DNA of 64,000 bases from Candidatus Multivoradales bacterium (GTDB taxonomy: Bacteria > Acidobacteriota > Thermoanaerobaculia > Multivoradales > Multivoraceae). The translations under genes were made by a program, and so were the position numbers. Position 1 is the first letter of the stretch. Every line of letters starts with the position of its first letter. Of this stretch, positions 26,880 through 42,377 are shown piece after piece. The stretch is taken from contig CBDCWI010000002.1 of the NCBI GenBank assembly GCA_965223325.1, positions 2,400,001 to 2,464,000 of the forward strand. The letters run 5' to 3'. The notes below the pieces were generated by a model. It was given only the letters and a program-made list of their open reading frames with translations, was not told where the DNA came from and did no database searches.

Positions 26880-27518
26880 CTAGTATTTTCGGAGCAGGCC
26901 CACCACAACGCCCTGGATCTGTAGCTTGTCGGCATCGACGTAGATCGGATCCATCTCCCGGTTCGACGGCTGGAGCCGCACGCGCCGCCCCTCAGGGAAG
27001 AAGCGCTTGAGGGTGACCTCGCTCTCGACCAGAGCGACCACCATCTCACCCTTCTCACCAACTTCACGACTCTGTACGACCACAAAGTCACCGTCGTGAA
27101 TGCCCTCGTCGATCATCGAATCGCCAGCCACCCGCAAGATGTAGTGCTGCTCGGGCTTACCAGCCAGGAGATCCAGCGGTACGCCGAGCGACTCATGACC
27201 ACTGAGCGCCTCGATCGGCCGACCGGCAGCGATTCGCCCGAGAAAGGGCAGGTCCGCTACTCCACCAGCCGCAGCAGAATCCGGCTCCCGCGCGCTCTCC
27301 TGCTCCACCAGCTCGATGCCGCGCTTCTGATGCTGGACCCGGCGCAGGTACCCCTTCTCGCGCAGTAGCTTCAGGTGCTTGTGGACGGTGCCATAGGAGG
27401 AGTAGCCAAACCGCTCGCAGATCTCGCGATGGGTGGGGGCGATTCCGCGCTGGGACTGGAAGTCTTCAATGAAGTCGAGGATCTGGCGCTGGCGTTCGGT
27501 GAGAAAGGAAGGACTCAT
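26880..27518 (-). CDS. lexA: LexA repressor
   Basis: LTERQ..PT.REI wHTH; GRIAAGRP Ala-Gly cleavage site; GDSM (Ser) and TLKR (Lys) catalytic dyad; AGGAG SD. Confidence 0.95.
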   Translation of the reverse strand: MSPSFLTERQRQILDFIEDFQSQRGIAPTHREICERFGYSSYGTVHKHLKLLREKGYLRRVQHQKRGIELVEQESAREPDSAAAGGVADLPFLGRIAAGRPIEALSGHESLGVPLDLLAGKPEQHYILRVAGDSMIDEGIHDGDFVVVQSREVGEKGEMVVALVESEVTLKRFFPEGRRVRLQPSNREMDPIYVDADKLQIQGVVVGLLRKY

Positions 27519-40763: not shown

Positions 40764-40958
40764 TCAGTCTTCGACCAGGCGCACGAGGTGCGGGATCTTC
40801 TTGATCATGCCGCGCACCGCCGGCGTGTCTTCACGCTCAACGACGTGACGAATGCGGCGCAGGCCGAGGCCGCGCAGCGTGTCGCGCTGCTTCTGGGTGC
40901 GACCGATAGGACTGCGGTACTGCTCGATCTTGATGGTTGCCTTCTTCTTCTTGGCCAT
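40764..40958 (-). CDS. rpmD: 50S ribosomal protein L30
   Basis: [24 protein letters not shown]. Confidence 0.95.
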
Positions 40959-41506
40959 TACGAAGCTTCTCCTGCGACCTCCGGCCCGCCGGCGGGCTGC
41001 GGCGCGACCTCGTCGGTAACCAGTGGCAGGCCGCGAAGCTGCCGCACCTGATTCTGGCTGCGCAGCGAAACGAGGGCTGCAAAGGTCGCCTTGACGACGT
41101 TCTGCGGGTTGGTGGTGCCGAGCGACTTGGTGAGGATGTCCTGGACGCCGGCACATTCGATGACCGCACGCACCGGTCCGCCGGCAATGACGCCGGTACC
41201 TTGCGAGGCTGGCTTGAGCATCACGCGGCCGGCCGAGAAAACGCCGGTGACTTCGTGCGGAATCGTAGTCCCCGACATCGGCACGCGAATCAGGTTCTTC
41301 TTGGCGGACTCGATTCCCTTACGAATCGCCACCGGAACCTCCTTCGCCTTACCCGAGCCGTAGCCCACGCGCCCACGCCCGTCACCAATGACAACAAGTG
41401 CCGAGAACGAAAAGTTCTTACCACCCTTGACTACCTTGGTGACGCGATTGATGTGGACGACTTGCTCGAAGAAGTCTCGATCTAGTCGGTTGATTTCCCT
41501 GGCCAT
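40958..41506 (-). CDS. rpsE: 30S ribosomal protein S5
   Basis: [24 protein letters not shown]. Confidence 0.98.
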
Positions 41507-41971
41507 GTTCTAGTTCCTGTTCTTTGTCTCTTCTGAGCCGCACGGCGAAGCCGTGCTTGGCGGGAAGCTCCCTGGCTGGGAGCATGATCCTCATCATGCT
41601 TCTAGCCAGGAATGTGGACGACTTGCTCGAAGAAGTCTCGATCTAGTCGGTTGATTTCCCTGGCCATGTTCTAGTTCCTGTTCTTTGTCTCTTCTGAGCC
41701 GCACGGCGAAGCCGTGCTTGGCGGAAGGCTCCCTGGCTGGGAGCATGATCCTCATCATGCTTCTAGCCAGGAATGTGGACGACTTGCTCGAAGAAGTCTC
41801 GATCTAGTCGGTTGATTTCCCTGGCCATGTCTTAGTTCCTATCTCTTTCTTGGCTCCCACCTGAGCCTGGTCCCACCTGAGCCGCACGGCGAAGCCGTGC
41901 TTGGCGGGAAGCTCCCTGGCTTGGAGCATGATCCTCATCATGCTTCTAGCCAGGATCCCTGGCCATGTCTT
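41451..41971 (-). repeat. Tandem array of RBS + first 56 nt of rpsE + hairpin element (units 41451-41611, 41612-41772, 41773-41955, partial 41956-41971)
   Basis: Direct reading: period 161 bp; units 1 and 2 differ at 2 nt; unit 3 has a different linker. Confidence 0.95.
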
Positions 41972-41990
41972 GTTGAGGCGAAACCGCACA

Positions 41991-42377
41991 TCAGAATTCG
42001 AGCCCGCCTTCTCTCGCCGCATCGGCGAGGGCTTTGATCTTGCCGTGGTAGACGAACCCACCGCGGTCGAACACCACCTTCTTGACGCCCTTATCGAGAG
42101 CGCGCTCGGCAACCAGCTTGCCCACCGCTTCGGCCGCACCCTTGTTCGAGGTACCACCGGAGACCTGCGAACGCACCGCAGACTCCAGGGAGTTCGCCTG
42201 CGCGAGGGTGGTGCCATCGGCATCGTTGATCACCTGAGCATAGATGTACCTGAGGCTCTTGCTAACGGACAGACGCGGGCGCTCTTCGGTACCGGTCACC
42301 CGGTGACGAATGTGGTAGCGCTTGCGCTGTCGACGGTTCTGTCTGAGCAGGGTTCTCCTGCGTCCTATGGAGCTCAT
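41991..42377 (-). CDS. rplR: 50S ribosomal protein L18
   Basis: [34 protein letters not shown]. Confidence 0.97.

Follow-up and report, generated by a model that had tools for sequence, protein, structure and literature searches.

False starts of rpsE alternating with a truncated REP-like hairpin element in the spc operon of a Multivoradales bacterium: a likely tolerated duplication scar

How does an essential ribosomal protein gene come to be preceded by several copies of its own beginning, and do these copies serve it? The question is raised by the rplR-rpsE junction of Candidatus Multivoradales bacterium, on the minus strand of a 64,000-nucleotide stretch of the genome (the window), where decoy starts of rpsE alternate with a hairpin-forming element. 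The first-pass annotation of the window offered two answers, active insertion of a REP/MITE-like element that regenerates the 5' end of the gene it enters, or an attenuator in which decoy starts tune the output of S5, L30, L15 and SecY. Our analysis favours another one: the array is most likely a tolerated and neutral scar, left by the reiteration of a REP-like cluster that took in the rpsE start. Even the interior of the highly conserved spc operon can evidently absorb about 455 nt of selfish repeat and three decoy starts without loss of the gene, and the locus offers a natural test case for the effect of decoy starts and structured spacers on translation inside an operon.

Anatomy of the array

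The array is flanked upstream by rplR, encoding ribosomal protein L18 (42377-41991, minus strand, stop codon TGA at 41993-41991; taken from the list of open reading frames, Pfam Ribosomal_L18p E 1e-42), and downstream by an intact rpsE, encoding ribosomal protein S5 (40958-41506, minus strand; Pfam Ribosomal_S5 E 4e-30, S5_C E 1e-29); L6, L18, S5, L15 and SecY were all confirmed by Pfam at the locus. Between the two genes three units stand in tandem, in each of which a hairpin element of 79 nt is followed by a purine-rich RBS and then by nt 1-56 of rpsE, and TRF reported a period of 161 with 3.0 copies and 91% matches at 41451-41955. All features that follow lie on the minus strand. The rplR stop is followed by a 24-nt spacer (41967-41990), devoid of a purine-rich SD, which ends in AAGAC directly before the first ATG. 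This ATG opens decoy ORF 0 (41946-41966), encoding MARDPG*, in which an 11-nt remnant of the rpsE start (ATGGCCAGGGA, 41966-41956) is joined to the left end of the first element copy (junction J1). That copy, E1 (41955-41877), comprises hairpin H1 and the conserved core hairpin and was recognised by BLAST, nhmmer and DNA folding. It is followed by the 48-nt unit-1 spacer (41829-41876) and by decoy ORF 1 (41763-41828), in which the first 56 nt of rpsE pass through junction J2 into the next element and stop at the TAG of copy E2 (41694-41772; BLAST, nhmmer and unit alignment). A purine-rich 26-nt RBS spacer (unit 2, 41668-41693) leads to decoy ORF 2 (41602-41667), built in the same way from the first 56 nt of rpsE and junction J2 and stopping at the TAG of copy E3 (41533-41611), whose H1 stem-loop spans 41610-41571 and whose core hairpin with its flanks spans 41568-41529. 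The real rpsE is reached through a 26-nt RBS spacer (41507-41532) with the same sequence as that of unit 2.

The succession of rplR, element, false starts and full rpsE that the first-pass annotation had read from the letters is borne out by the minus-strand sequence, TRF and the unit alignment, and translation returned its false-start peptides, MARDPG once and one and the same 21-residue peptide from decoy ORFs 1 and 2. Every decoy ORF terminates at the TAG in the left end of an element. The distance from a decoy stop to the next ATG is 95 nt for the stops in units 2 and 3 and 117 nt for decoy ORF 0, and in the unit alignment the complete decoys and the real gene agree in RBS and start context. 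A tblastn search with S5 residues 1-19 gave three matches at the rplR-rpsE locus. Gene callers may choose a false rpsE start here or call the 21-codon ORFs.

The units are close copies, probably of unequal age. Between units 2 and 3, 2 of 161 positions vary, between E1 and E3 1 of 79 (BLAST identity 98.7% over 79 nt), and the 56 nt of rpsE are invariant throughout the array. In unit 1 the spacer has 22 nt more than in the other units and has diverged by several indels; it contains a 16-nt internal tandem duplication, then 12 nt matching the right arm of the repeat family described below (by comparison with family copy L026), then the purine-rich RBS. CTAG lies 3 nt 5' of each ATG, with CTAA in its place in unit 1. 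Given element bodies that are 98.7-100% identical next to a diverged unit-1 spacer, constraint or gene conversion could be acting on the element. The complementarity noticed earlier between the TCCTGGC arm and rpsE codons 2-3 is also present, GCCAGG (codons 2-3) and CCTGGC (element left end) being inverted repeats; in decoy ORF 0 they face each other as GCCAGG-GAT-CCTGGC, a 6-bp inverted repeat with a 3-nt loop.

A family of structured, CTAG-bounded repeats

The first-pass annotation had proposed a genome-wide BLASTN search with the element. In the 6.69-Mb genome its only significant matches were the three local copies, and foreign full-length copies used as queries likewise found only these three at significant E. 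Related copies surfaced through a profile and a covariance model, and only through these: covariance model R1 of the core revealed at least 19 cores at at least 8 loci among the 150 scored of about 12,900 rough candidates, training sequences matching by construction. In a DNA search of 40 relatives the element core was a dispersed repeat in three, and the family is present in 4 of 57 genomes of the same taxonomic family. An exact-pattern scan of a species-representative collection found 27 loci in three records, titled as Thermoanaerobaculia or Acidobacteriota MAGs.

We built the family profile from 19 copies of two other genomes only, and nhmmer matched all three rpsE copies to it (E3 at E 1.3e-10, E2 at 4.4e-9, E1 at 5.2e-8). 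The match covers positions 11-80 of 140 and leaves 81-140 unmatched, hence the rpsE copies lack the third hairpin, H3, and the right end. Full copies measure 137-185 nt, are bounded by CTAG on both sides and consist of the left hairpin H1, the conserved core hairpin and the right hairpin H3 with a conserved loop. Among the 19 aligned full copies the left end is CTAG in 18 and CTAA in one, the right end CTAG in 18 and CCAG in one; the rpsE copies carry the left CTAG. The family is modular: in some genomes H1, a palindrome flanked by CTAG on both sides, also stands by itself. The helix of the core, made up of three pairs, an AA bulge and seven pairs, is 99.4% paired over 16 sequences from five subfamilies, both sides change in 5 of its 10 pairs, and none of 500 shuffles reached its covariation score.

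To judge by sequence and predicted structure, then, the rpsE element is a truncated member of a structured, CTAG-bounded REP/MITE-like repeat family from Thermoanaerobaculia, which is new and unnamed and is documented here together with its habit of hugging stop codons. The REP/MITE-like nature suggested at first sight agrees with profile E-values of 1e-10 to 5e-8, with dispersal in three related genomes and with covariation in the core. By eye, the 24-nt spacer 3' of rplR looks like the loop of the family's third hairpin; nhmmer gave no significant family match in this spacer, and the rpsE 5' region compared with the third module of the family scored E 0.46 and -1.7 bits in a 571-nt search, which is not significant.

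Rfam returned no matches at E up to 10 for the region in the window and chance-level eukaryotic matches only for six element-bearing loci, ruling out a known RNA family and in particular a hammerhead, despite CTGATGA-like words in some copies. A metagenome scan with the 20-nt inner palindrome gave four matches, all in unrelated coding sequence and none a second instance of the subfamily.

Tandem arrays make up 6 of the 8 core loci found in this genome: rpsE with three copies, C2:90912-91687 with four, directly 3' of a stop codon, C2:1640895-1641514 with three, and three further arrays on C1, where subfamilies with the same core have GTAG...CTAC hairpins. Part of the unit at C2:1640895-1641514 is a copy of the 13 nt that close the upstream gene, so there too the reiteration took in gene sequence from the flank.

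Positions of the family copies

We examined 31 cores, kept the 26 whose left CTAG could be recognised (one of them begins a contig and has no upstream sequence) and left out the other five. In 16 of the 26 copies the TAG of the left CTAG closes a same-strand open frame of at least 60 codons, and the open frame ending there has a median length of 146 codons; in the other two frames the medians are 51 and 35. Where this genome has an orthologue, the gene closes with TAC-TAG or TTC-TGA and no element follows. Some copies (L047, L066) stand head to tail and share one CTAG. The copies in other genomes adjoin stop codons, not duplicated starts. Empty sites compared between this genome (G000) and G001 are about 72-79% identical, too diverged to prove a 4-bp target duplication.

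The family also tells where the sequence at the array junctions comes from. TCCTGGC stands directly 3' of GGCTCAGAAG in three copies of the same-genus genome, and the closest foreign copy ends in TCCTGG where others end in TTCTAG, which shows that the six bases derive from the element and not from rplR or rpsE. A tandem-inversion-duplication, suggested by the inverted matches to the gene start, was rejected, the hairpin arms coming from the family consensus and not from rpsE.

Relatives and other gene-start arrays

Comparison of the rplR-rpsE spacers of relatives, proposed in the first-pass annotation, showed the arrangement to be absent from those examined: neither the element nor a second S5 start was found at this junction in any of 19 relatives, the same genus included. 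S5 residues 1-19 gave one tblastn match in each of the 19, whose spacers measure 13-198 nt (gap count); that of the same-genus genome, about 194 nt, is unrelated.

False starts are found elsewhere in this genome. It contains 82 tandem arrays whose period is 60 or more and whose copy number is 1.9 or more; 73 arrays have at least 88% matches, and in 11 of these an open frame runs out of the array into a likely gene, as defined by a crude GC3-based gene caller, three of these 11 candidates having been verified. The verified gene-start arrays are those of rpsE, of a gene for an EngB-like GTPase (134 nt, 5.3 copies) and of tmk (98 nt, 3.3 copies). The filler that separates the starts in the engB-like and tmk arrays occurs nowhere else in the genome and is unrelated to the element; false-start arrays therefore arise in this genome without it.

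Origin of the array

With such arrays at the engB-like gene and tmk, tandem reiteration suffices to explain the false starts, and no special property need be ascribed to the element. Position would account for their being tolerated, because a duplication across the 5' boundary of a gene keeps one intact copy of that gene at the downstream end, while a duplication wholly inside a gene destroys it, so that arrays touching genes contain only starts or ends. In the order of events that we infer, a copy of the CTAG-tagged multi-hairpin repeat would first have settled at the rplR-rpsE junction. Local DNA would then have been reiterated in tandem, the unit taking in the rpsE RBS and the first 56 nt of the gene, and the upstream copies would have become decoy starts, short ORFs that run into the TAG of the element. 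Units 2 and 3, two differences apart, would be the youngest, and unit 1, with its remodelled spacer, older.

The junctions place a constraint on this scheme. Both novel junctions, after nt 11 and after nt 56 of rpsE, resume at one and the same base, the T of TCCTGG at the foot of H1. A shared left end is not expected from random tandem duplication and calls for a breakpoint directed by the hairpin or by an enzyme, or for a secondary deletion. The 11-nt remnant is probably a unit that lost a 45-nt loop between the inverted repeats GCCAGG and CCTGGC: the two lie 3 nt apart in the remnant and 48 nt apart in a full decoy, as expected from the loss of 45 nt of hairpin loop. Alternatively, the hairpin foot or the tag may be a preferred site of breakage or nicking. 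The founding event cannot be written as one simple contiguous duplication, since the spacer that precedes the first ATG is unlike the RBS spacers of the units. That 24-nt spacer may be a remnant of the right part of an older element, AAGAC also preceding the right terminus of family copies.

Comparison with known systems

The closest parallels to the family and to its presumed behaviour at rpsE are REP sequences. In passages of PMC3733652, REP termini are described as often supplying the TAG stop of flanking ORFs, and REP clusters as reiterated in tandem with flanking DNA of variable length; mobilisation of GTAG-tagged REP/BIME clusters and REPINs by RAYT (Y1/HUH) transposases is treated in PMC3116915, PMC2817692 and PMC8266576. 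The present family shares both of the former habits, since its terminus provides the TAG stop of an upstream ORF in 16 of 26 copies and its clusters are reiterated with flanking DNA in the rpsE and C2:1640895 arrays. Further likenesses are the GC-rich stem-loops, the conserved tetranucleotide tag at the hairpin foot and the intergenic position in the same orientation as the genes. It differs from REPs in that the tag is CTAG, GTAG being found only in the sister subfamilies; in its compound unit of three hairpin modules over 137-185 nt; in its low copy number, at least 19 cores at at least 8 loci here against about 100 or more REP copies per genome; and in that no RAYT-like gene flanked by copies was found. 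Moreover, unlike in REP clusters, the flanking DNA taken in here is the start of an essential ribosomal protein gene.

Mycobacterial interspersed repetitive units (MIRUs), whose original paper reportedly dates from 1997, likewise form non-coding tandem repeats in operons, where they separate genes of one orientation; every unit holds a short ORF, so that the downstream gene is still expressed. Their ORFs are coupled to the next start by a -4 nt overlap, according to a review (PMC12548453), whereas the decoy ORFs stop at least 95 nt before the next ATG and have an RBS each. The rpsE unit, in contrast to a MIRU, also takes in genuine sequence of the downstream gene; it is unrelated to MIRUs in sequence and belongs to another phylum.

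CTAG at both ends of the family copies recalls CTAG-targeting MITEs derived from IS5/IS1182. Unlike in those, the left and right ends share only CTAG, without an element-long terminal inverted repeat, and no DDE partner was found: PF01609 had no match in two genomes (G000, G001), and PF13359 and PF13751 had none in three (G000, G001, G002), whereas as controls the three models matched in 9, 1 and 2 of 14 genomes, respectively.

IS608 and ISDra2 have subterminal hairpins, no terminal inverted repeats, a fixed tetranucleotide at their ends and orientation-specific insertion. The present family resembles IS200/IS605 elements in its subterminal hairpins, its want of terminal inverted repeats, its orientation-specific insertion and the fixed tetranucleotide that precedes the left end on the 5' side and recurs at the right end; it is set apart by the fact that no TnpA/TnpB gene carries these ends and that the rpsE copies are without the right one. 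Finally, e14 in icd and the islands in tRNA genes are integrating elements that bring a replacement gene end. As there, a duplicated gene end lies beside foreign DNA and the gene is kept intact; unlike there, the array has no integrase, its insert is about 80 nt, the 5' and not the 3' end is duplicated, and there were several tandem rounds.

Active insertion and a mobilising enzyme

Active insertion into rpsE with a regenerated 5' end, the first of the two early proposals, is not supported here. The copies lack the 3' hairpin module and the right terminus, no transposase partner was found beside any copy, and the start arrays of the engB-like gene and tmk use unrelated, unique filler. A self-regenerating integrative element would look different from the rpsE element, which is 79 nt long, non-coding and without a linked recombinase.

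A more specific form of the idea replaces insertion by enzyme-driven reiteration. A nickase acting at the hairpin foot or tag would copy from the fixed left end a variable distance into rpsE, and the product would re-insert beside the same end, so that the element would effectively regenerate the gene start each time. The candidate would be an HUH/Y1 transposase, working as in REP-RAYT systems, in IS200/IS605 elements, from which palindrome-associated elements derive (PMC6006769), or in one-ended rolling-circle transposition. We regard this mechanism as unlikely, although it would account for a left end that is constant at both junction types while the right ends vary (nt 11, nt 56), for the tetranucleotide tag beside the hairpin feet and for the GTAG...CTAC hairpins of the sister subfamilies. 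The genome also contains 28 Y1_Tnp open frames, 25 of them above the Pfam cut-off, compared with 6 in the same-genus genome and 13 in G007. None of the 28, however, has element sequence within 2.5 kb, and G002 (genome completeness 91%) has at least 21 element copies and no Y1_Tnp match. Furthermore, the two right-hand breakpoints are without a common motif, the right hairpin of the family is absent from the rpsE copies, and the tmk and engB-like arrays formed without the element.

The fold of the single-stranded element bears on the same mechanism. E3 is predicted to fold as DNA at -25.8 kcal/mol on the mRNA-sense strand and at -29.0 kcal/mol on the plus strand, where G-T pairs complete a continuous 18-bp stem (z -5.5 and -6.1, respectively; none of 200 shuffles as good), and a hairpin better formed on the plus strand would suit an enzyme of this kind. 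The two strands of E1 are equal (-28.6 vs -28.2 kcal/mol), so that the plus-strand advantage claimed earlier for the long stem stands for E3 and fails for E1; over the element copies, DNA folds have z from -4.7 to -6.1. The core loop on the plus strand also fits the GCGN(N)AGC DNA mini-hairpin motif as described in the abstract of PMC13037366, a further point for the enzyme.

Regulation

The second early proposal was a decoy-start attenuator, in which the decoys and the structured element would titrate or pace ribosomes and thereby tune synthesis of S5, L30, L15 and SecY, element sequence complementary to the rpsE start switching between H1 and sequestration of the start site. Such a role we hold to be quite improbable. 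Several features look suited to it. The complete decoys match the real gene in RBS and start context, and RNA minimum-free-energy folds, stronger than those of shuffles (z -3.9 to -4.9), are predicted to pair the element with the next AUG-GCCAGGGAA. All decoy ORFs, moreover, stop in frame at the TAG of the element. Against these stand the absence of the arrangement from all 19 relatives examined, the same genus included, with spacers that are unrelated, a result that leaves the proposal unsupported, and the fact that the complementary motif is part of the family consensus throughout, also in copies remote from any rpsE. In two of three frames a stop is reached within the first 18 nt of the element, so that in-frame termination is weak evidence and no strong sign of design. 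There is also no Rfam family match and no promoter- or terminator-like site on the mRNA strand. Pairing of the downstream start (GGCCAGGGAA) with the element, as predicted by the RNA folds, could affect translation but does not indicate a function.

A bolder combination of both ideas has hairpin-anchored reiteration, possibly started at hairpin feet by a Y1/HUH enzyme, run again and again over the 5' boundaries of rpsE, the engB-like gene and tmk and build decoy-start arrays of variable copy number, which would serve as heritable and reversible translation dials. It would amount to a VNTR-type contingency mechanism acting on core housekeeping genes, and we give it a slim chance.

Read support

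Logan short-read contigs from three samples of one study were compared with positions 41200-42300; the samples may be the genome assembly's own source, in which case their support is not independent of the assembly. A flank contig ends at 41480 in each of the three samples, and short-read assemblies can be expected to break at the rplR-rpsE array in this way. The contigs seen stop short of spanning the array, so the number of its units rests on the assembly. An array produced entirely as a repeat echo of a long-read assembler is, even so, highly improbable: no single contig or read spans the array, 41644-41925 are without contig cover and units 2 and 3 do not appear as separate contigs distinguished by their two differences, but in all three samples short-read contigs contain both junctions, the depth of the 161-nt unit is about double that of the flanks and unit 1 is set apart from the others by indels.

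The junction between rplR and the array is contained in a contig covering 41926-42300, which runs from rplR through the 11-nt start as far as nt 30 of E1 and was found in all three samples with 0 differences. The junction from a decoy start into the element is crossed by a 60-nt contig (41582-41641), again in three samples. A 161-nt contig corresponding to 41451-41611 has depths of 22.2, 59.7 and 19.8 in the three samples, where the flanks have 10.7-12.1, 26.1-28 and 9-12, so that the depth of the unit is about twice theirs. The reads thus attest at least a duplication, together with both junction types. The argument of the first-pass annotation that differing units speak against a simple assembly echo agrees with these read junctions and with the indels of unit 1.

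Results and Discussion

The spacer between rplR and rpsE measures ~194 nt in one relative (L002:1705-1898) and ~176 nt in another (L013:1347-1522), and both spacers hold unrelated, hairpin-rich sequence. The junction seems to be a repeated collector of insertions within this bacterial family. An empty CTAG site was identified 14 kb from rpsE, at the gene located at 26881-27256 of the window: its orthologue in the same-genus genome carries an element of the CTAG family behind the stop codon, while the gene itself ends in TAC-TAG with no element.

Tandem arrays were also found at the starts of two further genes of the window's genome. At the start of a gene encoding an EngB-like GTPase (Pfam MMR_HSR1), a 134-nt unit is repeated 5.3 times (L087:727-1452, corresponding to C2:2521526-2522251). 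Each unit contains the first 30 nt of the gene, along with a hairpin filler that is unique and a 13-nt sequence that repeats codons 6-10 perfectly in inverted orientation. This array parallels that of rpsE, but lacks the CTAG element. The thymidylate kinase start is reiterated in 3.3 copies of a 98-nt unit that are 99% identical (L088:151-475, C2:3846150-3846474). Since the start context of the first copy differs from that of the later ones, the founding event again looks like a combination of filler and a 27-nt duplication.

At gene 3' ends, a sister subfamily of the element forms a run of four 194-nt copies arranged head to tail (L080:213-988, C2:90912-91687), which starts exactly on the TAG of the upstream gene and has a single CTAG common to both copies at each junction. 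In another array, of 3 x 209 nt (L082:46-665, C2:1640895-1641514), the unit reiterates the last 13 nt of the upstream gene plus its stop, a 3'-end counterpart of the decoy starts.

Read opposite to the strand of the upstream gene, the core loop of the element is GCGAAGC, GCGCAGC, GCGTAGC or GCGCTAGC (41545-41553 of the window, plus strand, and the cores of loci L041, L044 and L023). One report (PMC13037366) describes GCGN(N)AGC as a "mini-hairpin DNA" motif, and all these loops fit it. Because our search pattern partly forced this fit, the match offers no more than a lead to a possible role as single-stranded DNA.

Regarding a mobilising enzyme, Y1_Tnp (IS200-like) open frames of ~320-360 codons are densely clustered at C2:4455510-4486968 and C1:2126128-2143849. 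RAYTs are typically single copy, a number far exceeded by the 28 Y1_Tnp frames of this genome.

Finally, a sequencing run from a different study (X5) yielded a 175-nt contig (depth 3) identical to rpsE (41276-41450 of the window) and ending exactly at the array boundary, 41450; the organism may also be present in that study.
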